Source: an uncultured bacterium
GTDB taxonomy: Bacteria > Bipolaricaulota > Bipolaricaulia > UBA7950 > UBA9294
Assembly (NCBI GenBank): GCA_903839615.1
Contig: CAIMCX010000105.1
Coordinates: 1 to 45,995 of the forward strand
Reading direction: 5' to 3'
DNA length: 45,995 nt
Position 1 is the stretch's first letter; every line of letters starts with the position of its first letter. The position numbers and the translations under genes were made by a program. Below the pieces are notes generated by a model. It was given only the letters and a program-made list of their open reading frames with translations, did no database searches and was not told where the DNA came from. This document shows positions 37,379-45,995 of this stretch, piece after piece.

Positions 37379-38055
37379 GGACAAGCGCCATTCTCCTTGC
37401 CGCTGGCCGCGGACGCCGCATGGGCCAGGGTGTGAACAAGGTCTTTCTCCCCGTAGGCGGCGTTTCGATTCTCGCTCGAGCCGCCCTCGCATTCGCGCAA
37501 GTGCCGCGAATCGATGAGTTGATCGTCGTGGCCCACCCTGACGAGATGGCCCTCGCCGCCGATGCGCTGCCTCCTCTCGACATCCCGGTTCGCGTCGTCG
37601 AGGGAGGCGCGGAGCGGCACGACTCCGCGCTCGCCGGCGTGACGGCCGCAACGGGGGACGTCCTCCTCATTCATGACGCGGCGCGACCTTTCCCGTCACA
37701 GGATCTGATCGAACGCGTGATCGAGGGCACACTGCGCCATGGTGCCTGCATTCCCGTGATCCCCGTCGTCGACACCCTGCGCCTTGTCAACGCGGACGGG
37801 ACCGCGTCCGGGGATCCCGTCGAACGCGACCGCCTTTCCCACGTGCAGACGCCGCAAGGGTTTCGCGCCGAGATCATTCGACAAGCTCTGGCCGAGTGGC
37901 GGTCAGGAGTCCTCCTTCTGGACGACGCAGCCGCCGTGCTTGCGTGTGGTATCCGCGTCGTCACCGTGGCTGGGAATCCACGGAACCTGAAGGTCACGAC
38001 CCCAGCGGACCTCGAATTCGCAGGCCATGTGGCTGTAGGTTCGCAAGGTACCTAG
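37375..38055 (+). CDS. ispD: 2-C-methyl-D-erythritol 4-phosphate cytidylyltransferase
   Basis: ORF trimmed to ATG 37375. AILLAAGRGRRMG, NKVFLP, HDAARPF, VDTL, QTPQGF. Confidence 0.9.
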   Translation: MRTSAILLAAGRGRRMGQGVNKVFLPVGGVSILARAALAFAQVPRIDELIVVAHPDEMALAADALPPLDIPVRVVEGGAERHDSALAGVTAATGDVLLIHDAARPFPSQDLIERVIEGTLRHGACIPVIPVVDTLRLVNADGTASGDPVERDRLSHVQTPQGFRAEIIRQALAEWRSGVLLLDDAAAVLACGIRVVTVAGNPRNLKVTTPADLEFAGHVAVGSQGT

Positions 38056-38075
38056 AACACAGCCGTCCGCTTGCG

Positions 38076-38104
38076 TTGCCGATCCACTCGCGCCCCGCTA
38101 GAAT
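38076..38104 (+). promoter_or_regulatory. Sigma70-type promoter for the orphan secreted-protein gene
   Basis: TTGCCG (38076-38081), 17-nt spacer, TAGAAT (38099-38104). AAGGAGG lies 5 nt upstream of ATG 38133. Confidence 0.55.
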
Positions 38105-38132
38105 GCTCGCTATTGTTGTCAAGGAGGATTCC

Positions 38133-38822
38133 ATGCTTCGAACGAAGAACGTCGGGTGGTTGTTTGCAGCGACGGCCGTCATCGTGATGCTCGTCGGGAG
38201 CGCCGCGGTGGCAACCGAGCCCATCCAGTCCTACGTCGTAGGAGACACGGCGGCTTGGGTGTTCAACAACCTTACGGGTGTGGACGTGACCGGCATTCAC
38301 GTCGAGTTCGACCGGGCCGTCACGATGACCTACAAATTCGAGATCGGCGGGTACTTCCCGGCGCTCGGTCCCGCGACGGGGACGACGTTTAACTATAACG
38401 GCGGCTCGCTTGTGTCCGGCGGCTGCCTCATTCTCCAGTGGCAGCCCGCAGATGCGCAGCCCACGTTGGTCATGTGGATGAACGGCGCGCACCCGGTCGG
38501 GAAGCCCTACTTCACGACGATTGACCGCCTCGGCTACCTGTTCGGGCAGGGCATCGTCTACCTGCGGCAGGCGAATCCTGCTGCGCTGCAGGCCGCGTTC
38601 GGGCAGTTCTTCGCCGACAACGCCGCCTACTTCACGCAGCTCTCACAGACGCTCGGCATGTCGCTCCAGGACTCGCTCCTGCCGATCATCATGTCGGCTC
38701 CGGCGGAAGGAATCCAGAACTTCTTCAACACAATCATCGGGATGCTTGGAGTCACCGACCTCCAAGGTCTTCTTGGCGGGGCCGTGAACTTCAGCTCGTT
38801 GATGACGGCGCTCGGACTATAA
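38133..38822 (+). CDS. Secreted protein of unknown function (beta-rich N-terminal half, helical Ala/Gln/Phe-rich C-terminal half)
   Basis: ORF 37896-38822 trimmed to ATG 38133, which has a perfect AAGGAGG SD. Signal peptide MLRTKNVGWLFAATAVIVMLVGSAAVA. I recognise no family motif. Confidence 0.7.
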   Translation: MLRTKNVGWLFAATAVIVMLVGSAAVATEPIQSYVVGDTAAWVFNNLTGVDVTGIHVEFDRAVTMTYKFEIGGYFPALGPATGTTFNYNGGSLVSGGCLILQWQPADAQPTLVMWMNGAHPVGKPYFTTIDRLGYLFGQGIVYLRQANPAALQAAFGQFFADNAAYFTQLSQTLGMSLQDSLLPIIMSAPAEGIQNFFNTIIGMLGVTDLQGLLGGAVNFSSLMTALGL

Positions 38823-38846: not shown

Positions 38847-38883
38847 CGCGCGGGGGGGCGTTGCCCCCTCCGCGTCTTTCTTT
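38847..38883 (+). terminator. Rho-independent terminator for the orphan gene; the hairpin could also serve the converging EamA gene
   Basis: GC-rich stem cgcgcgggggggc / gccccctccgcg with one bulge and one G-U pair, a 3-nt loop, followed by tctttcttt. Confidence 0.65.
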
Positions 38884-38899: not shown

Positions 38900-39979
38900 T
38901 TAGGAGCCCGTCTCATGGGGATGCCGGTGATGCGCGTCCGGGCGGTGTGGATGGGTGTGCACGAGGCTTGTGTGTGTGTGAGCGTGCGCGTGTGCTCCCT
39001 CGGTGGTCTCGGCGTCCGCGTGGGCGTGCTCATGGTGCTCGTCGTGGACGTGCCGGTGCGTGTGGATCGAGGGCTCGTGACCGTGGGAGTGTTCGTGGCG
39101 CTCTCGCATGAGGAGCCACGTCGCGAAGAGGACGAGCGGAAACGCAGCGTACGTCGTGATGGGCGGCCCTTCGCGGAAGATGCACAGCGAGATCGCGGCC
39201 GCGAGGAACGGCGCGGCTCCGAACAACGCCCCCGTTCTGGCAGAGCCAAGCTTCCGCAGCGAACGAACGAAGAACGCAATACTCGCACCGTACGAGACAG
39301 CGCCCAGTGCCAGCGAGGCGAGAGCGGGACCTACCGTTGGGAATGGCCGGCCGAGCGCAAGCGCCAGGAGAAGAGAGAACGCCCCGGCGCCCAAGCCCTT
39401 CAGAATGACGATCGTCTTCGGATTGCGCAGCGAGACGTTGCGCGTGAGGTTGTTGTCGAGTCCCCAAAGGACGCAGGCGCAGACAATCAGGAGAGATCCC
39501 GGCGAGAGACCCCAGGCGCCCGCCGGGCTGATGGACAGGAGGACTGCGCCGACAGTCACGAGCCCGACTGCCAGCCACGCAACCCGCCCGACGGCCTCGC
39601 GGAAGAGAATCGCGGCGAGCCCCGCCGTAGCCGCGGTCTCGAGCGTGAGCAGGAGAGATGCCGTGGCCGCGGGAGTCTTGGCAAGCCCGAAGAGGAGGCA
39701 GAGGGGCGCTGCGACTCCTCCAACGAAGATCGCGGAAACGAGCGAAGGGATGTCGCCACGCTCGAGGCGCGCTTCCTCTCCGCGGCGACCCGCACCAGCG
39801 AGGGCTCCCGCCAGAAGCCCGAGGCAGGCACCAGCTCCCAGGTACAGGAGGCCGGCGAGGACGATCGGGTCTACGTCAGTCAGGAGAAGCTTCGATAGCG
39901 GCGAAGAGAGCCCGAATAGGGCCGCAGCCAAGAGCCCGTCAAGAGCTCCGGATGCCGCCCCAACCCGCGGCGCGGTCAT
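38900..39979 (-). CDS. DMT/EamA-family permease (10 TM) with a 65-aa histidine-rich C-terminal tail
   Basis: Two EamA-like halves of 5 TM each. The tail HEHSHGHEPSIHTHRHVHDEHHEHAHADAETTEGAHAHAHTHTSLVHTHPHRPDAHHRHPHETGS contains 23 His in 65 residues. The ATG overlaps the upstream stop (ATGA at 39976-39979). Confidence 0.8.
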   Translation of the reverse strand: MTAPRVGAASGALDGLLAAALFGLSSPLSKLLLTDVDPIVLAGLLYLGAGACLGLLAGALAGAGRRGEEARLERGDIPSLVSAIFVGGVAAPLCLLFGLAKTPAATASLLLTLETAATAGLAAILFREAVGRVAWLAVGLVTVGAVLLSISPAGAWGLSPGSLLIVCACVLWGLDNNLTRNVSLRNPKTIVILKGLGAGAFSLLLALALGRPFPTVGPALASLALGAVSYGASIAFFVRSLRKLGSARTGALFGAAPFLAAAISLCIFREGPPITTYAAFPLVLFATWLLMRERHEHSHGHEPSIHTHRHVHDEHHEHAHADAETTEGAHAHAHTHTSLVHTHPHRPDAHHRHPHETGS

Positions 39980-42237
39980 GCCTCTTCCTGCAGGAGGGCA
40001 CGGACGCGTGGCGGGTCGAGCGGGTACTTCGTGAGCCGTCGTCCGGTGGCATGAGCGACCGCGCGAGCGACGGCAGCGTGTGCGGCCATGAGCGGCACCT
40101 CGCCGATGCCCTTCATCCCGAACGGCCCTGCGGGGAAGAGGTCTTCAACGAAATCCACGATTGGCTTGAGTGGGACGTCGCGAATCGTCGGGATGCGGTA
40201 GGTCGTGAATCCGTTGACCACGAGGTGCCCGTCTCGGACGCCGATCCCCTCCATCAGGGCAAAGCCGATGCCCTGCGCAACGCCGCCCTCGACCTGCCCC
40301 GTGGCGAGAGCACGATTGAGGATGCGTCCTGAATCATGCACTGCGATGTAGTCGATGACGCGCGTCTCCCCGGTCCGCACGTCGACCTCGACCTCCGCGA
40401 TGTGCGTCGCGTAGGCGTAGACCGGGTATGCGTCGCCGAGTCCGGTCGCGGGGTCCCAGCTCACGGGCTCGGTCGACGCGAAGCCTTCCACCGCAGGGTC
40501 AAGGTTCTCGATCCAGAAGTGATGCGCAATCTCCGGCAGACGATCGGCGATCTCCCGTTTCGGAATCTTGTGCGCCTTCGCGACGTTCTCGATCCGCTCA
40601 CGCAACTTCGCTGCCGCATCGAGGACGGCAAGCGCGCTCATCATCGTGCCGCGCGACGCGACAGTCGGACCGCTGTCGGGAACGCGCGACGTGTCGACCG
40701 GCGCGAGCTGGACGCGATCGAGCGGCACACCAAGGCCCTCGGCGGCGACCTGGAGCACCGCCGTCGTCAGGCCCTGGCCCATCTCGACCGTCCCGATCGC
40801 AACCCCGACCGAGCCGTCCGGCTCGAGCTTCATCGTCGCTCCCGCCTTGTCGAGGAATGGCGCCTTGCCGCCGAGCCCGACGCCGTAGAGGACGCACGCC
40901 ACGCCAATCCCGCGGCGCGTCTCGCTCGACGAGCGATTGTGCGCATCGATCGAGGCAAGGCGCTCGGGCCAATGGGCAAGATCCGCCGCGCGGTCGAGTG
41001 TCTCAGCCACGCCGACGCTCGACGCGACGCAGTGATCCGTCGAGGTGCAATCCCCGGCGTGAAGGACGTTCCGGCGCCTGATCTCCACCCGGTCGATCTT
41101 CAGGCGCTCGGCAAGGAGGTCCATCTGCGACTCGTGCGGGAAGATGACCTGCGGGCTCCCGAATCCTCGGAACGCCCCGTTCGGCACCGTGTTCGTCGCC
41201 ACCGAACGGGCGACGACGCGCACGTTGGGAACGCGATACGGACCCGCCGCCGTGACGAGGCTGCGCCAGAGGACGGCGGACGAGAGCGTCTGGTACGCGC
41301 CCGCGTTGAGGACAACGTCCACGTCGATCCCCGTGATTCGGCCGTCGGCGTCCGCCGCCGTCTTGTAGCGGACCACCGATGGATGCCGCTTGCTGGTTGT
41401 CAACACATCTTCGGCCCGGTCGAGGACGAGCTTCACCGGTCGCCGAGTGGCCCACGCGCCGATCGCGGCAAGCGAGCCAATGAGCGACGGCACGTCTTCT
41501 TTGCCTCCGAACGCGCCGCCGGTGGCGGTGGCCACGACGCGCACCTTGGCCAAAGGAAGGCCGAGAACCTTCGCCACCGCGTTCTGCACGTAGAACGGGC
41601 ACTGCATCGACCCGTAGACGCAGAGCGCACCCAGTTCTTCCGGAACGGCAACCGCACCTTGGGTTTCGAGATAGGCATGCTCCTGGTACCCGGTCTCGTA
41701 GACGCCCTCGACCACAGCCACCGCGTCAGCCACCGCGCGGTCGGCGTCGCCCTTGTCGAGCACCATGCGGTTGAACAGGTTCCCGCCTTCCGCGGCGGAC
41801 GGCACAGCTACAAGCGGCGCACCTGGCTCGAGCGCGGCGAGCGGGTCAGCAACGAACGGCAGGACCTCGTATTCGACGTGCACGGCGGCCGCCGCCGCGC
41901 GAGCCTCGGCTCGCGTTCCGGCAACGACAAGGACCACGGGCTCTCCTACGTAGCGCACGACGCCCTCGGCGAGCGCCGGCTGGTCGTCGACGATCACGTG
42001 CACGATGTTGTCGCCGGGAACGTCGGTCGCCGTGAGCACGGCGACCACCCCGGAAAGAGAACGCGCCGCCTCGGCTTCGATTCCGACGATGCGCGCGTGA
42101 GGGTGCGGACTGCGAACGAGAGAAGCGTGGAGCATGCCGGGGAAGGCGAGGTCGTCCGCGTACCTCGCCTCGCCCCGGACCTTATCGATCGCATCGGGCC
42201 TAGGAACCCCGGCTCCGATGAGCGTCGTACGCTTCAC
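39976..42237 (-). CDS. Xanthine dehydrogenase/aldehyde oxidase-family molybdopterin-binding subunit (no FeS or FAD domain)
   Basis: ORF trimmed to GTG 42237 (TAGTG overlap with the upstream stop; GGGAGG lies 9 nt upstream). a/b-hammerhead N-terminus: GAGVPRPDAIDKVRGEARYADD, HASLVRSPHPHARI. Also GGAFGGKE, AFRGFGSPQ and GIGEVPL. Confidence 0.85.
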   Translation of the reverse strand: MKRTTLIGAGVPRPDAIDKVRGEARYADDLAFPGMLHASLVRSPHPHARIVGIEAEAARSLSGVVAVLTATDVPGDNIVHVIVDDQPALAEGVVRYVGEPVVLVVAGTRAEARAAAAAVHVEYEVLPFVADPLAALEPGAPLVAVPSAAEGGNLFNRMVLDKGDADRAVADAVAVVEGVYETGYQEHAYLETQGAVAVPEELGALCVYGSMQCPFYVQNAVAKVLGLPLAKVRVVATATGGAFGGKEDVPSLIGSLAAIGAWATRRPVKLVLDRAEDVLTTSKRHPSVVRYKTAADADGRITGIDVDVVLNAGAYQTLSSAVLWRSLVTAAGPYRVPNVRVVARSVATNTVPNGAFRGFGSPQVIFPHESQMDLLAERLKIDRVEIRRRNVLHAGDCTSTDHCVASSVGVAETLDRAADLAHWPERLASIDAHNRSSSETRRGIGVACVLYGVGLGGKAPFLDKAGATMKLEPDGSVGVAIGTVEMGQGLTTAVLQVAAEGLGVPLDRVQLAPVDTSRVPDSGPTVASRGTMMSALAVLDAAAKLRERIENVAKAHKIPKREIADRLPEIAHHFWIENLDPAVEGFASTEPVSWDPATGLGDAYPVYAYATHIAEVEVDVRTGETRVIDYIAVHDSGRILNRALATGQVEGGVAQGIGFALMEGIGVRDGHLVVNGFTTYRIPTIRDVPLKPIVDFVEDLFPAGPFGMKGIGEVPLMAAHAAVARAVAHATGRRLTKYPLDPPRVRALLQEEA

Positions 42238-43262
42238 TACAAGCGGCCTCCCATCGTCAAGGTGAGGATCGCCTTTTGCGTGTGGAGGCGGTTCTCGGCC
42301 TGGTCGAGGATCCACGACAGCTTGTTGTCACACACCTCCGGATCCGCTTCATTGCCGCGGTCCACGGGCATGCATTGGAGGAGGTACCCGGGGTCGCCGA
42401 GCTTCTTCTGGCGCTCCGTCGAGTACTTCCAGCTCACGTACTTCTTCGCGATCTCGGCTTCTTTGTCCTTCCCGATCTGGTAGCGATCCTTCGTGAACCA
42501 GTTGCGCGGGAAGACGACGGTCGCCCCGTCGAGCGCCTTGTCGAGATCGTGCGAGATCTCGAACGATCCGCCCGACGCCGACGCGAGGTCGCGGCACTGT
42601 TGCATGACCTTCGGATCGAGGTCGTATTCGGGCGGGTTTGCCACCACGACGTTCATCCCGTACATCGAAGAGATGAGCGCCGTGCCCTGCACCGAGCACC
42701 AACCGCGGATCCACGGGGACCACGCCCACATGATGACGATCTTCTTGCGGTTGACGTCCGCGTCAAGCTTCTCGTGCATCGTGTAGATGTCGGTCAGCGA
42801 CTGGCACGGATGGTTGATGTCCGACGCCATGTTGATGATCGGCACGCGGCAATGCTTGGCGAACTTCTGCATGACCTCGTCCGCCTCGCCGTAGGCGCGG
42901 ATCTTGTCGTCGAGAAGCCGGATGCCGACTCCGTCGCAATACCGCTCCATTGCCTCGGCCGTGTCCTTCACCGTCTCCCCGGCGCCCGGCTTGTCCTCGA
43001 GCGACAGGCGCGTCGTCTGCGGGTCGATGAACTGCGCGTGCCCGCCGAGCTGCGTCATCGCCGTCTCGAACGACATGCGGGTCCTTGTGGAACCGGCGAA
43101 GAACATCATCGCGAACGTCTTGTACTGGAGGTACGGGTGAGGGGAGCGACTGTAGTACGCGCCCTTCATCTGGTCAGTGACCTTCATCGCGATGTCGTAC
43201 TCTTCCCGAGTCCAGTCAATTTCGCTGATCAGGTCACGACCGGCAAGATCGAACCAGCTCAT
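42237..43262 (-). CDS. Divergent aspartate/ornithine-carbamoyltransferase-superfamily protein, 'knotted' AOTCase/SOTCase/YgeW-like, with HCLP replaced by QCMP
   Basis: GSTRTR, HPCQ, IVIMWAWSP.., NVVVANPPEYDLDP, SGGSFEISHD, AENRLHTQKA. The motif at the HCLP position reads LLQCMPVDRG. Strong SD AAAGGAGG plus 4 nt precedes the ATG. Confidence 0.8.
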   Translation of the reverse strand: MSWFDLAGRDLISEIDWTREEYDIAMKVTDQMKGAYYSRSPHPYLQYKTFAMMFFAGSTRTRMSFETAMTQLGGHAQFIDPQTTRLSLEDKPGAGETVKDTAEAMERYCDGVGIRLLDDKIRAYGEADEVMQKFAKHCRVPIINMASDINHPCQSLTDIYTMHEKLDADVNRKKIVIMWAWSPWIRGWCSVQGTALISSMYGMNVVVANPPEYDLDPKVMQQCRDLASASGGSFEISHDLDKALDGATVVFPRNWFTKDRYQIGKDKEAEIAKKYVSWKYSTERQKKLGDPGYLLQCMPVDRGNEADPEVCDNKLSWILDQAENRLHTQKAILTLTMGGRL

Positions 43263-43322
43263 GAAACCTCCTTTGCCAGGAACGCAACCGCCGGGCGTCC
43301 TCTGCGGTTACGCCGGTCCTTC

Positions 43323-44360
43323 CTAGCCCATGATGCAGACCATCATGCCCTTCTGCCCGTGGAGGCGGTTCGCCGCCTGCTCGATGATGACCGAGTTCGG
43401 ACCGTCGATGACCTCATCCGTGACTTCCATGTCGCGGTCGGCGGGGAGGCAGTGCATGTAGATCGCGTCGTTCGTGAGCTTCATCTTGTCCTGCGTCGTG
43501 ATCCAGCTCTTGTTCGCCTCGAACAAGGCCTTCGCCTTCTCCGGATCCATCGGCATCTTGCCATCGGTTGGCTGCACGGTCCACGCCTTCGGGTAGACGA
43601 CGTCGGCGCCCTTGAACGCCTGATCCATGTCGTTCACGATCTTGAACGCCCCGCCATGGCGCTTCGCGAGATCCTTCGACGCCTGGAGCACCTTTGGGTC
43701 GAGATCGAAGCCCTTCGGATGGGCAAGCGTGACGTCCATGCCCATCGTCGCCGCGGCGATGATGCAGCTCTGCGGGACGGCAAGAGGCTTCTCGACCGAG
43801 CCGGAGTACGCCCAACTCATGACGAACTTCCTCCCCTGCAGGTTGTGACCGAGCTTCTCCTGCATCGTCATCACGTCGGCCAGGTCCTGGCACGGGTGAT
43901 ACATGTCGTCTTCCATGTTGATGACCGGGACCTTCGACCAGTGGGCAAACTCGCGGATGATCTGGTTGCCCTTGCCGTACTTCCAGTCGGTGTACTTGCC
44001 GTAGATGCGGATCGCGATCGCGTCGCCCATCTCGGCGAGGACGCGGGCGACGTCGCTGATGCGCTCGGTCGAGTAGGCCTTCTCATCGCCCTTCAGGGCC
44101 GGCGTGTAGACGGCGCCCGGTTGCAGGAAGTGGGCGTGACCGCCGAGCTGCGTCATCGCGGTTTCGAACGAGTTTCGGGTCCGCAGCGACGTGTTGTAGA
44201 ACATCATGTGCAACGTCTGCCCGTCGAGGATCTTGTGCGGCTCGCGGCGGATGAACTTCCGCTTCAGGTCGTGCCCGGTGTCGAGAATGGCATCCAGTTC
44301 GTCGCGCGAGAACTCAAGCCAGGTGATGAAGTCCCGTCCCCTCAGTGTTGTGTTGGACAC
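43323..44360 (-). CDS. 'Knotted' carbamoyltransferase (N-acyl-ornithine CTase / YgeW-like clade), substrate unknown
   Basis: SLRTR (the variant I recall from N-succinylornithine CTase), HPCQ, KFVMSWAYSGSVEKPLAVPQS, MDVTLAHPKGFDLDP, HGGAFKIVNDM, MHCLPADRDMEVTDEVIDGPNSVIIEQAANRLH. GTG start with GGGAGGA 4 nt upstream. Confidence 0.85.
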   Translation of the reverse strand: MSNTTLRGRDFITWLEFSRDELDAILDTGHDLKRKFIRREPHKILDGQTLHMMFYNTSLRTRNSFETAMTQLGGHAHFLQPGAVYTPALKGDEKAYSTERISDVARVLAEMGDAIAIRIYGKYTDWKYGKGNQIIREFAHWSKVPVINMEDDMYHPCQDLADVMTMQEKLGHNLQGRKFVMSWAYSGSVEKPLAVPQSCIIAAATMGMDVTLAHPKGFDLDPKVLQASKDLAKRHGGAFKIVNDMDQAFKGADVVYPKAWTVQPTDGKMPMDPEKAKALFEANKSWITTQDKMKLTNDAIYMHCLPADRDMEVTDEVIDGPNSVIIEQAANRLHGQKGMMVCIMG

Positions 44361-44387
44361 ATTTCCTCCCTCGTTTCTCTATCCTAT

Positions 44388-44417
44388 GGTGATGGCCATC
44401 CGCAGATGGCCATCACC
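44388..44417 (-). promoter_or_regulatory. Perfect 30-nt palindrome (13-bp arms, 4-nt centre) at the carbamate kinase stop; either an RNA stem-loop or a protein operator
   Basis: GGT-GATGGCCATC-CGCA-GATGGCCATC-ACC. The 10-mer GATGGCCATC is itself palindromic and occurs twice. The right arm contains the CK stop codon. No U-tract follows on the mRNA strand. Confidence 0.6.
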
Positions 44418-45366
44418 CCGTGATCGTCGTGCCGGCCTTGCCATCGAGCGCGTCCGTCGCCTTGTCGAGCGAGGTGATGATCGCCTTCTCGCCGCCCGCC
44501 TCGACGAACCGAATCGCGGCACGGACCTTCGGCTCCATCGACCCCTTCGCGAAATGTCCCTCGGCGTGATACTTCTTCGCCTCGGCCACCGTCATGCGGT
44601 CGAGCGCTTTTTCCTGCGGCGTCTTGTAGTAGAGCTTCACCTGGCTCACGTCGGTCAGGATCATGAAGATCGACGCCTTGACGTCGGCAGCCAACCGCTC
44701 CCCTGCAAGGTCCTTGTCGATGACGGCGTCCACGCCCTTCAGGCCGCCGTCCTCGCGTACGACGGGAATCCCGCCGCCGCCCGAAGCGATGACGATCGAG
44801 CGTGCCGCGACGAGCTGACGAATGACTTCCTTCTCGAAGATCTCGACCGGATCCGGAGATGCGACGACGCGGCGCCATCCGCGGCCGGCGTCTTCCTTCA
44901 CGTCGTAGCCCTTCTCGTCGTGCAGACGCTTCGCCTCGTCGGCGGAGTAGAACGGGCCGACGGGCTTCGTCGGATGCTTGAACGCGTCGTCGTTCGCGTC
45001 GACAACGACCTGCGTGACGATCGTGGCCACCGGGATGTCCGGGCGCCCTCCTGCGGCAAAGAGATTCGTCAGGTTCTGCTGGATCATATAGCCGATCAGA
45101 CCCTGGCTTTCGGCACCGCAGACGTAGAGCGGCATCGGTGCCGCGACGTCCTTCCCGACCTCGTTCTGCAGGAGGATGTTCCCCACCTGCGGGCCGTTCC
45201 CGTGCGTGACGACGATCTTGTACTTGCCCGACTCGACCATGTGCGCCAACTGCTCGCAGGTCAGGTGGACGTTCTTCATCTGTTCTTCGAACGTGCCGCG
45301 CTGGCCGGGCTGCAGGATCGCATTCCCGCCCAAGGCGACGACGACGAGTTTCTTCTCAGCTGGCAT
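44413..45366 (-). CDS. arcC: Carbamate kinase
   Basis: KLVVVALGGNAIL, VVTHGNGPQVG, IDKDLAGERLA, GGGIPV. Start at ATG 45366 (SD GAAGGAAGAGAGGA) rather than ATG 45411. Confidence 0.9.
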   Translation of the reverse strand: MPAEKKLVVVALGGNAILQPGQRGTFEEQMKNVHLTCEQLAHMVESGKYKIVVTHGNGPQVGNILLQNEVGKDVAAPMPLYVCGAESQGLIGYMIQQNLTNLFAAGGRPDIPVATIVTQVVVDANDDAFKHPTKPVGPFYSADEAKRLHDEKGYDVKEDAGRGWRRVVASPDPVEIFEKEVIRQLVAARSIVIASGGGGIPVVREDGGLKGVDAVIDKDLAGERLAADVKASIFMILTDVSQVKLYYKTPQEKALDRMTVAEAKKYHAEGHFAKGSMEPKVRAAIRFVEAGGEKAIITSLDKATDALDGKAGTTITG

Positions 45367-45410
45367 CCGTTCCTCTCTTCCTTCACCGCTGGTCTTCGTT
45401 TCGCGCGGCA

Positions 45411-45995
45411 TTACGCTTCCCAGATCTCGCGCATCCGTGTCCAGTGTTCGACCATCTTCGAGCGAGCCGTCTCGCTATCTCTCTCTTCCACCGCCGCGAA
45501 GATCTCACGATGCAGATCGACCACGTGCTGAAGGTCGCTCACGTTCTTCAAGTAATACTGGCGCGTGAACTCCCGATACACCCTGTGGTCCATCGTGTCG
45601 ATCAGCGGTCCGAGCGCGGACGAGATGAGAGCGTTGCCCGATGCCTCAGCGAGGGCGCTGTGGAACGCCTTGTCCGCCTGGAAGTACGCCTCGAAGTCGT
45701 TCTTCGCGGCGAAGCGCCCCATTCGCTTCAGCGCGTCTCTCAGTTTCGTGAGCGCCGAGTTGGCCATCTTCTCTGCCGCCAGCGCCGCAACGGCCGGCTC
45801 GAGCGCCTCGCGAGCCTCCATCACCTCAAGGCAGCCGGCCTCGCTTTCGATCAGCCCGACGGCGTTCCGCTCATCCAGAGGCGATGGCGCGCGCAGGACG
45901 TAGTTGCCGCTTCCCGGGCGCGACTCGATCAGCGCCATCGCCTGAAGTGCGGACAGGGCTTCTCGGATCGATGGACGACTCACGCCCATCTGCTC
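45411..45995 (-). CDS. GntR-family transcriptional regulator with a FadR-type FCD C-terminal domain; N-terminus lies beyond the window edge
   Basis: The frame is open to nt 45995. (E)QMGVSRPSIREALSALQAMALIESRPGSGNYV is the wHTH recognition region. An all-helical ~150-aa FCD-like domain follows. Confidence 0.8.
   Translation of the reverse strand, partial: EQMGVSRPSIREALSALQAMALIESRPGSGNYVLRAPSPLDERNAVGLIESEAGCLEVMEAREALEPAVAALAAEKMANSALTKLRDALKRMGRFAAKNDFEAYFQADKAFHSALAEASGNALISSALGPLIDTMDHRVYREFTRQYYLKNVSDLQHVVDLHREIFAAVEERDSETARSKMVEHWTRMREIWEA

Follow-up and report, generated by a model that had tools for sequence, protein, structure and literature searches.

Two diverged knotted-type carbamoyltransferases encoded beside a carbamate kinase in Candidatus Bipolaricaulota, a putative variant of the anaerobic uric-acid cluster

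The window analyzed here is the whole 45,995-nucleotide (nt) stretch of contig CAIMCX010000105.1 (assembly GCA_903839615.1), which comes from an uncultured bacterium of the Bipolaricaulota. Close to its end, it encodes on the minus strand a carbamate kinase followed by two adjacent carbamoyltransferases, here designated CT1 and CT2. Both proteins keep the carbamoyl-phosphate site of their superfamily and evolve under purifying selection, and their second-substrate pockets differ from each other. Here it is proposed, with slightly better than even confidence, that CT1 and CT2 are two competent enzymes acting on different ureido substrates and that, together with the kinase, they belong to a Bipolaricaulota version of the anaerobic reductive uric-acid cluster.

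The CT1 and CT2 genes

The two genes and the sequence elements discussed below are located in the window as follows:

43323..44360, minus strand: CT1, knotted-type carbamoyltransferase, 345 amino acids (aa); motifs SLRTR, HPCQ and HCLP; YgeW-like loop WAYSGSVEKPLAVPQS
42237..43262, minus strand: CT2, knotted-type carbamoyltransferase of an uncharacterised subfamily, 341 aa; motifs STRTR, HPCQ and QCMP; Trp-rich loop WAWSPWIRGWCSVQGT
43443..43454, minus strand: HCLP codons of CT1 (CAC TGC CTC CCC), invariant in 120 orthologue clusters
42366..42377, minus strand: QCMP codons of CT2 (CAA TGC ATG CCC), in which Q and H differ by the third base of the codon alone
44133..44171, minus strand: SFETAMTQLGGHA stretch in CT1
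43035..43073, minus strand: SFETAMTQLGGHA stretch in CT2

Aligned over their full length, CT1 and CT2 share 38% identity (BLASTP E = 1e-81), and both have the Pfam domains OTCace_N and OTCace (136 and 119.8 bits in CT1, 134.2 and 94.6 bits in CT2, with cutoffs of about 29–30). The initial annotation, made from the letters of the DNA, had described two adjacent and diverged paralogues with common carbamoyl-phosphate elements (S[LT]RTR and HPCQ), and this description holds, as do the motifs that it quoted (MHCLPADR in CT1 and LLQCMPVDRG in CT2), the replacement of the segment WAYSGSVEKPLAVPQS of CT1 by WAWSPWIRGWCSVQGT in CT2, and the identical 13-aa stretch SFETAMTQLGGHA in both proteins. More than 115 orthologue clusters were found for each of the two proteins, at 60–96% identity, and the organism names on their records, where given, are nearly always Candidatus Bipolaricaulota or Acetothermia. 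In the databases, CT2 is named ornithine carbamoyltransferase and CT1 N-acetylornithine carbamoyltransferase. The exact DNA occurs in freshwater-sediment metagenomes.

Carbamoyl-phosphate site, QCMP motif and selection

The carbamoyl-phosphate elements of the superfamily (SxRT, the beta4 Arg, and HPxQ) are present in both families, as SLRTR, R118, and HPCQ in the 120 CT1 clusters and as STRTR, R115, and HPCQ in the 115 CT2 clusters. Among the latter, the ligands STRTR, R115, HPCQ, R302, and R325 are conserved in 113–115 of the 115, C297 is found in 106 (V in 9), and P299 is kept. The HxLP motif of the superfamily is also found in CT1, which reads HCLP in 120/120 orthologue clusters, and not in CT2 with its QCMP. 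Of the 115 full-length orthologue clusters of CT2, 70 begin the motif with Q and 44 with H, 106 follow with C and 9 with V, and the M and P are constant (M in 115/115). The forms HCMP and HVMP belong to deeper CT2 clades, with 54–69% identity to the CT2 of the window, and the Q is found in the clade with at least about 71% identity to it. Judged from these alignments, the Q of QCMP is a single derived third-base change (CAY to CAR) from an ancestral H, fixed in one subclade. Because H persists in 44 of the 115 clusters with the same pocket, the Q would be a late change in an already distinct family, and it appears to be tolerated as a lineage-specific change that has not abolished function.

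Variation at the motif is also found outside the CT2 family. In a sample of 112 wider-family representatives, 6 have N, D, or Q at the His position (8 when L and Y are counted as well), and 18 have M at the Leu position. The side chains of HxLP do not touch the substrates directly, and it is the main-chain oxygens and the cis-proline that act (PMC4581275), so HCLP is not catalytic in the way that the initial annotation suggested; both its Cys and its Pro are retained in QCMP. The family review also permits "some variations" of HxLP, such as NCLP (PMC4581275). The notion of a lost catalytic motif was thus abandoned, as Q and H exchange within one orthologous group (70 Q, 44 H), and the Q-for-H change by itself is of little importance. 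A counter-reading offered with that annotation, namely that the Q and M substitutions are common and neutral variants of characterised enzymes, stands in its first half, the substitutions being common among relatives, but none of those relatives is characterised.

The ratio of nonsynonymous to synonymous substitution rates (dN/dS) of CT2 within its clade is 0.04–0.16 (14 of 16 orthologues; dS is saturated in two), compared with 0.06–0.27 for CT1 and 0.06–0.21 for the carbamate kinase. With carbamoyl-phosphate ligands conserved and dN/dS low, a decaying or non-catalytic CT2 is unlikely; the reading of CT2 as a decaying pseudogene was rejected on its dN/dS, and both proteins are taken, on the conservation of their sequences, to be catalytically competent. 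The initial annotation had also listed a regulatory pseudo-enzyme, in which CT2 would have lost its activity through the change from HCLP to QCMP and would serve as a regulatory or scaffolding partner of CT1. CT2 does depart from HxLP at two positions and falls below every curated NCBIfam cutoff; however, all its carbamoyl-phosphate ligands are invariant, H is still present in the 44 clusters that have the same pocket, the residue replaced by Met acts through its main chain, and selection on CT2 is as tight as on CT1, which makes a non-catalytic CT2 very improbable.

Phylogeny of the pair

The relationship between CT1 and CT2 was analyzed by neighbour-joining of 44 sequences with 200 bootstraps, a tree built on distances alone from a sample picked by similarity to CT2, in which the deep branching is uncertain. 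Each of the two families is monophyletic in 200/200 bootstraps, an exclusive clade of CT1 and CT2 is found in 0/200, and so is a grouping of CT1 with N-acetylornithine carbamoyltransferase (AOTCase). CT1 is closer to the proteins P0269 (51%) and P0250 (46%) and to a third paralogue (45%) than to CT2 (38%), and the identity of CT2 to P0244 and P0243 (42%) slightly exceeds that to CT1. From this tree, CT1 and CT2 are judged to be anciently diverged, and a recent tandem duplication, which the initial annotation had deduced from their shared segments, was rejected, as the exclusive clade is never recovered and each has closer relatives elsewhere.

The 13-aa stretch common to both proteins is found in the most conserved region of the superfamily, and its perfect identity is confined to this lineage: SFEAGMTQLGGHA is the reading in 107 of the 120 CT1 orthologue clusters, and the CT2 version is found in only 5. 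Being lineage-specific and located in that region, the identity is no sign of a recent duplication. At the nucleotide level, the two stretches are identical at 35 of 39 positions; gene conversion is not demonstrable from this number, as the amino-acid constraint and a GC content at third codon positions (GC3) of about 0.9 already give about 31 of 39, and a very short CT2-to-CT1 conversion is possible.

Less similar relatives of the two proteins have other surroundings. The CT1 relative P0269 and the CT2 relative P0263 (about 50% level) are encoded in unrelated biosynthetic clusters, which are uninformative as to function but make the pairing of CT1 with CT2 specific to the Bipolaricaulota. The distant CT2 relatives P0241 and P0243 lie on contigs of less than 2 kb, too short to give a gene context, and P0244, a CT2 relative from outside the phylum with the motif HVLP, adjoins an M20 hydrolase, which would be a pairing like that of YgeW with YgeY.

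Fold, family membership and second-substrate pocket

Both proteins appear to be of the knotted, AOTCase/YgeW-like type, as far as sequence and models can tell; the initial annotation had likened the C-terminus of CT1 to the knotted N-acyl-ornithine enzymes. The signature of the knotted members is an extra "proline-rich" loop after beta6 and an extended 120's loop (PMC4581275), and both insertions are present in CT1 and CT2 relative to the ornithine carbamoyltransferases (OTCases) of P. furiosus and E. coli; in CT2, the loop after beta6 is Trp-rich and has a single Pro. Among solved structures, the knotted AOTCase is closest to CT1 by sequence (E = 4e-69), and the Pyrococcus OTCase is closest to CT2 (E = 1e-52), with AOTCase next. 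The AlphaFold models (mean predicted local distance difference test, pLDDT, of 93.5 for CT2 and 86.1 for CT1) both have AOTCase as the best fold match, with template modelling (TM) scores of 0.87–0.91 and a root-mean-square deviation (rmsd) of about 2 Å, which is indirect support for the trefoil knot.

Neither protein could be assigned to a standard OTCase or putrescine carbamoyltransferase (PTCase), which the initial annotation had considered for the second copy. Both are under the cutoff of the OTCase model TIGR00658 (CT1 238 and CT2 205 bits, cutoff 281) and of the PTCase model TIGR04384 (213 and 189 bits, cutoff 500), the DxxxSMG motif of classical OTCases is absent from both, as that annotation had stated, and in the tree they stand apart from the SMG-bearing sequences. 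Similarly, with the YgeW models NF005538/TIGR03316, they reach 174 and 102 bits (cutoff 453). An identity as ureidoglycine carbamoyltransferase (UGTCase), an enzyme of the unknotted ATCase branch with the motif H(T/S)LP, was rejected as well. For SOTCase, the succinyl-anchoring residues His176, Arg178, and Arg278 were read through a numbering offset from AOTCase (H180, K182, R298); CT1 has S, S, and D at these positions, which suggests that it does not have this anchor.

With the AOTCase equivalog NF003384 (cutoff 288), CT1 reaches 320.2 bits and CT2 218.6 bits. In line with the database names, CT1 could be a true N-acetylornithine (or N-acyl-ornithine) enzyme and CT2 an unusual ornithine/citrulline type, both working in arginine or citrulline metabolism, either anabolically or, with the kinase, in a fermentation of citrulline or acetylcitrulline. 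The score of CT1 on NF003384, its closest solved relative, and an ArgE/DapE-type deacylase in four loci agree with this. However, AOTCase is defined by Glu92, Asn185, and Lys302 (PMC4581275), and CT1 has T, K or P (in a loop without Asn), and E at these positions, whereas CT2 has G, G, and E; CT1 retains the AOTCase residues Glu144 and Lys252. Additionally, the tree never groups CT1 with AOTCase, neither protein has DxxxSMG, CT1 has been lost in one complete genome, and neither the window nor the related loci contain arginine-biosynthesis genes or an arginine deiminase, the neighbours being instead the carbamate kinase, a xanthine dehydrogenase (XDH)-like subunit, a hydantoinase, and SsnA. A role in arginine or citrulline metabolism is thus quite improbable, and the NCBI name of CT1 is, by its residues, probably wrong.

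Among the residues of the second-substrate pocket are E150, S188, K191, and K258 in CT1 and A146, W184, R186, and R253 in CT2. The latter four, as well as W255, are invariant across the CT2 orthologue clusters, and from the alignments, the M for L in the motif together with the pocket Ala, Trp, Arg, and Arg are the constant features of the CT2 family. Of the proposed substrate residues of YgeW (Q160, S200, K203, K270), CT1 matches three (E, S, K, K) and CT2 none (A, W, G, R); the CT1 loop WAYSGSVEKPLAVPQS also resembles the E. coli YgeW loop WAYSPSYGKPLSVPQG, with KPL(A/S)VPQ kept. Among the readings offered in the initial annotation, that of two different second substrates is favoured here, because the residues by which the two pockets are told apart do not vary within either family.

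Operon structure in the window

The genes surrounding CT1 and CT2 follow the order GntR/FCD regulator, carbamate kinase, CT1, CT2, XDH-like subunit, and EamA transporter, all on the minus strand:

45411..45995, minus strand: GntR/FCD-family regulator, first gene of the operon, 5' end cut by the window end; Pfam FCD 1.3e-28 and GntR
44413..45411, minus strand: carbamate kinase (arcC type); TIGR00746 arcC 435.8 bits, cutoff 358
43263..43322, minus strand: CT1–CT2 spacer, 60 nt; GGAGG ribosome-binding site 5 nt before the CT2 ATG
39976..42237, minus strand: xanthine-dehydrogenase-family molybdopterin-binding subunit, about 753 aa; Pfam Ald_Xan_dh_C, MoCoBD_1 and MoCoBD_2
38900..39979, minus strand: EamA/DMT-family transporter, last gene of the operon; Pfam EamA 1.2e-25; its ATG overlaps the XDH stop (ATGA)
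38848..38875, no strand: GC-rich hairpin between the converging transporter and gene 37896-38822; from a consensus scan

The carbamate kinase is 47% identical to E. coli YqeA, and its true start is likely the second Met, at about 45366, as the orthologue matches begin at residues 14–16. Spacers of 52 and 60 nt, both containing a GGAGG site, separate the kinase from CT1 and CT1 from CT2. The XDH-like subunit scores under every NCBIfam cutoff; its start is most likely the GTG at 42237-42235, placed there because the orthologue matches begin at residues 26–31 and by inspection of the start site, with GGGAGG upstream and a 1-nt overlap with the CT2 stop TAG, and the long XDH reading frame overlaps CT2 in appearance only. 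A scan of the window found no terminator-like sites between the operon genes, and the hairpin at 38848..38875 is likely the operon end; the promoter scan found no sigma-70-like site, the sigma-70 consensus being uninformative for this phylum. The other genes of the window are housekeeping genes (FtsH, Dxr, MurJ, PolA, DnaB, RecG, Fmt, IspD, and others).

Some further features were observed in this region. The CT1–CT2 spacer contains a small hairpin, AACCGC...GCGGTT, without a T-run (about 43283-43306, minus strand). The kinase, CT1, and CT2 genes (42237-45411) have the highest GC3 in the window (0.86–0.90, compared with 0.73–0.85 elsewhere) and a low first-position GC, which could be an expression-linked codon bias or a different history. 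The C-terminal ~70 residues of the EamA transporter, a gene also present in the loci of the closest relatives, are extremely His-rich (HEHSHGHEPSIHTHRHVHDEHHEHAHADAETTEGAHAHAHTHTSLVHTHPHRPDAHHRHPHE) and may bind metal.

Gene order in relatives

For synteny, 35 GTDB loci were compared, along with further contigs. Wherever the flank suffices, GntR is followed by kinase, CT1, and CT2 (then XDH and transporter); the GntR gene precedes the kinase in 24 of the loci fetched, and the QCMP copy is essentially always beside an HCLP copy. The single exception is the complete genome CP070725.1 (L001, 9615-12820), which lacks the regulator and kinase. Of CT1, an 88-aa C-terminal remnant is left next to BamA, and the XDH gene is shortened to 568 aa, yet CT2 is intact; the operon of this genome appears to be decaying. 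In metatranscriptomes from wetland and sediment, the kinase, CT1, and CT2 of relatives are covered by contigs, one of which extends across the CT1–CT2 junction; this is weak evidence of expression, as DNA carry-over is possible.

The CT1–CT2 spacer varies from 12 to 934 bp in relatives and is an insertion hot spot. In eight loci of different lineages, a PDDEXK_3 gene of 150 aa is located exactly between CT1 and CT2:

L002, 1544-1996: PDDEXK_3 insertion, with the equivalent site in L003, L008, L009, L012, L019, L030 and L035

In two Ca. Bipolaricaulis metagenome-assembled genomes (MAGs; L006, 7753-9976, and L011, 3-1893), CT1 and CT2 are separated by YgeY (530 bits, cutoff 321) and a third carbamoyltransferase, which is YgeW-like, with HPMQ, HALP, and Gln at the Glu144 position, and gives three carbamoyltransferases per operon.

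The adjacency of the two genes could also reflect a mixed trimer or hexamer of CT1 and CT2 with hybrid pockets between neighbouring subunits, catalyzing a single step equivalent to that of YgeW. The two genes are nearly always neighbours, they are conserved together, and their dN/dS values match; in this family, a loop of the adjacent subunit, the 80's loop, takes part in the active site (PMC4581275), and the helix and the start of this loop are identical in both proteins of this lineage. This identity is nevertheless confined to the lineage, each protein keeps a complete site, CT2 is intact in the complete genome where CT1 is a fragment, relatives of either one are found alone in other surroundings, and the family review describes no hetero-oligomeric catalytic trimer of a transcarbamylase (PMC4581275). 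A mixed oligomer is, on balance, unlikely.

Possible purine-pathway context

The reductive uric-acid (2,8-dioxopurine) pathway proceeds through XdhD, a reductase (YgfK, UacX, or an F420 reductase), SsnA, and HyuA, followed by YgeW with YqeA, YgeY, and YgeX (PMC12507026; bioRxiv 10.1101/2025.04.24.650524). HyuA produces 2,3-diureidopropionate, YgeW phosphorolyses one of its ureido groups, the kinase converts the product to ATP, and YgeY hydrolyses the other group (PMC12507026; bioRxiv 10.1101/2025.04.24.650524), so that YgeW and YqeA obtain ATP from 2,3-diureidopropionate (bioRxiv 10.1101/2025.04.24.650524; PMC12507026). Because the SsnA, HyuA-like hydantoinase, reductase, and YgeY families occur in loci related to the window, the operon can be read as one for purine degradation; this context, carbamate kinase included, had escaped the initial annotation and is decisive for the proposal. 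The XDH homologue, the HyuA-type hydantoinase, the reductase, and the carbamoyltransferase with its kinase are all found across the loci, with no single locus holding all of them.

In two deeper clades, the gene order is SsnA, a thrC-like pyridoxal 5'-phosphate (PLP) enzyme, a cysK-like enzyme (L049 only), kinase, CT1, and CT2. SsnA, a marker of the reductive uric-acid cluster, is over its equivalog cutoff of 444 in both (521.7 bits in L049 and 500.7 bits in L054) and is located upstream of kinase–CT1–CT2. In L054 (1-4745, minus strand), which represents the HCMP clade, a Bmp-family ABC transporter diverges from the SsnA–PLP–kinase–CT1–CT2 operon; the Bmp family binds nucleosides or purines, and the clade of the window has EamA. 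In L049, an F420-dependent LLM oxidoreductase is added, of the kind reported in Chloroflexota clusters (PMC12507026). An uncharacterised 490-aa fold-type-II PLP enzyme, distantly cysteine synthase-like, is found beside the cluster in two clades, with 68–76% identity between them, and is a candidate for the last step, a beta-elimination:

L039, 3971-5452, minus strand; L049, 6498-7964, plus strand; and 14 other loci: 490-aa PLP enzyme

In the clade of the window, a D-hydantoinase (TIGR02033, 401.8 bits, cutoff 393), 38.5% identical to E. coli HyuA, is encoded just upstream of GntR, with the gene of the conserved, cysK-like 490-aa PLP enzyme next to it. In the closest relatives, whose CT2 is 94–96% identical, genes for aldehyde-ferredoxin-oxidoreductase (AOR)-like, SsnA-like, and DHO_dh/PreA-like proteins are located between the hydantoinase and GntR, and the DHO_dh/PreA-like protein is of the UacX type. 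The AOR-like gene of these close relatives is part of the cluster; the XDH-like subunit of the window lacks an Fe-S/FAD partner. No YgeY-like gene was found in the window or in most loci.

Proposed pathway

According to the proposal, the kinase, CT1, and CT2 would be co-transcribed in one operon of Candidatus Bipolaricaulota, CT1 and CT2 would each phosphorolyse a different ureido (N-carbamoyl) compound to carbamoyl phosphate, and the carbamate kinase would convert the latter to ATP, NH3, and CO2. In the most likely assignment, a HyuA-type hydantoinase would produce 2,3-diureidopropionate, CT1, with its YgeW-like pocket, would take one of the two ureido groups, and CT2 would take the second, in place of the hydrolytic YgeY step of E. 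coli, yielding two carbamoyl phosphates and two ATP per purine instead of one. This sharing of both groups is the simplest reading, since most loci have two carbamoyltransferases and no YgeY-like gene. That both groups are phosphorolysed in the Bipolaricaulota, with no YgeY step and with two ATP per purine through one kinase, is put forward tentatively, at rather less than even confidence. If so, CT2 would represent a new substrate specificity for a mono-ureido diaminopropionate (such as albizziin or 3-amino-2-ureidopropionate), with the signature x-C/V-M-P, NMA, the W-x-R loop, and FPR(N/G)W.

The same gene content could also belong to pyrimidine or hydantoin breakdown, with a PreA-like reductase and a dihydropyrimidinase, and with each carbamoyltransferase phosphorolysing one N-carbamoyl product (N-carbamoyl-beta-alanine and N-carbamoyl-beta-aminoisobutyrate, or other N-carbamoyl amino acids). 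The amidohydrolase does pass the dihydropyrimidinase/D-hydantoinase model TIGR02033, the closest relatives have the DHO_dh/PreA-like gene, and their SsnA-like protein scores about equally on deaminase and chlorohydrolase models. However, a true SsnA is found in the operons of two clades and a true YgeY in L006 and L011, CT2 and the XDH-family subunit are translationally coupled, the two conserved enzymes are not explained by a pyrimidine with its single ureido group, and the published purine pathway employs the same enzyme families (PMC12507026). Pyrimidine or hydantoin breakdown is consequently regarded as improbable.

Several observations weigh against the purine proposal. The substrates of CT1 and CT2 are guesses from gene context, and CT1 passes the AOTCase equivalog NF003384. 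An ArgE/DapE-type M20 hydrolase is encoded between GntR and the kinase in L017, L033, L034, and L038, and because of this gene in four loci and of YgeY in L006 and L011, CT2 can coexist with a hydrolase, so that a replacement of YgeY by CT2 is no clean either/or. The loci contain no YgeX equivalog, only the thrC-like and cysK-like PLP enzymes. In the clade of the window, the SsnA-like protein reaches 225 bits, under the SsnA cutoff of 444, and the window itself ends inside GntR, before the SsnA region of its relatives. Moreover, the XDH-like subunit is without adjacent Fe-S and FAD partners, for which no gene was found in the whole 46-kb window. Finally, the two pathway papers conflict on the ureido group taken by YgeW (PMC12507026; bioRxiv 10.1101/2025.04.24.650524), and the phosphorolysis of ureido groups is thermodynamically weak (PMC12507026).

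The literature searched contained no paper linking Bipolaricaulota or Acetothermia with carbamate kinase or carbamoyltransferases, and no description of the CT1/CT2 pair, of a pathway version with two carbamoyltransferases, or of purine fermentation in the Bipolaricaulota. If the proposal is correct, it would add one or two substrate specificities to a family whose reviewers call its catalogue incomplete, as well as an energy-conserving variant of the recently discovered anaerobic uric-acid pathway, which would then reach beyond gut bacteria to a widespread and barely cultured phylum of the sediment and subsurface. The names given to CT1 and CT2 in public MAGs would, in that case, wrongly credit arginine-biosynthesis steps and conceal a purine fermentation.

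Comparison with known systems

A close counterpart is YgeW (YTCase) of the reductive uric-acid cluster of E. coli and Clostridium, which has the same knotted-type signatures, is encoded beside homologues of the carbamate kinase, XDH, SsnA, and HyuA, and has the same proposed chemistry, the ureido phosphorolysis of 2,3-diureidopropionate to give ATP. CT1 keeps its residues S200, K203, and K270 and the KPL(A/S)VPQ loop. In contrast, CT1 and CT2 are only 33–35% identical to YgeW, far out of reach of its cutoff of 453, and lack its extra N- and C-terminal helices and long 240's insertion; Q160 is E in CT1 and A in CT2, and the Bipolaricaulota operon has two enzymes instead of one and usually no YgeY. 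The M20 hydrolase YgeY of E. coli, which handles the second ureido group, performs the step that is proposed for CT2, but it has an unrelated fold, acts hydrolytically and irreversibly with no gain of ATP, and is absent from most Bipolaricaulota loci.

AOTCase of Xanthomonas campestris (PDB 3kzc/3kzk) is the nearest solved sequence for CT1 and the nearest fold for both proteins. Nevertheless, conservation does not extend to its residues E92, N185, K302, and W77, its clade does not include CT1, CT2 has A for E144 and R for K252, and the context of CT1 and CT2 appears to be catabolic instead of an arginine cluster. The catabolic ornithine and putrescine carbamoyltransferases, which act with a kinase in the arginine and agmatine deiminase pathways, share the conversion of a ureido compound and phosphate to an amine and carbamoyl phosphate, the latter then giving ATP; unlike them, CT1 and CT2 have neither DxxxSMG nor the PTCase loop motif, are below the OTCase and PTCase cutoffs, and are encoded with no deiminase gene. 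Like CT1 and CT2, UGTCase of Rubrobacter xylanophilus (Rxyl_2847) was misannotated; its gene adjoins that of a carbamate kinase in a cluster for purine catabolism, it deviates from the usual HxLP motif, and its substrate for phosphorolysis is allantoate, which has two ureido groups (PMC4016543). It differs in its unknotted ATCase branch, its H(T/S)LP motif, and its oxidative allantoin route with a single enzyme.

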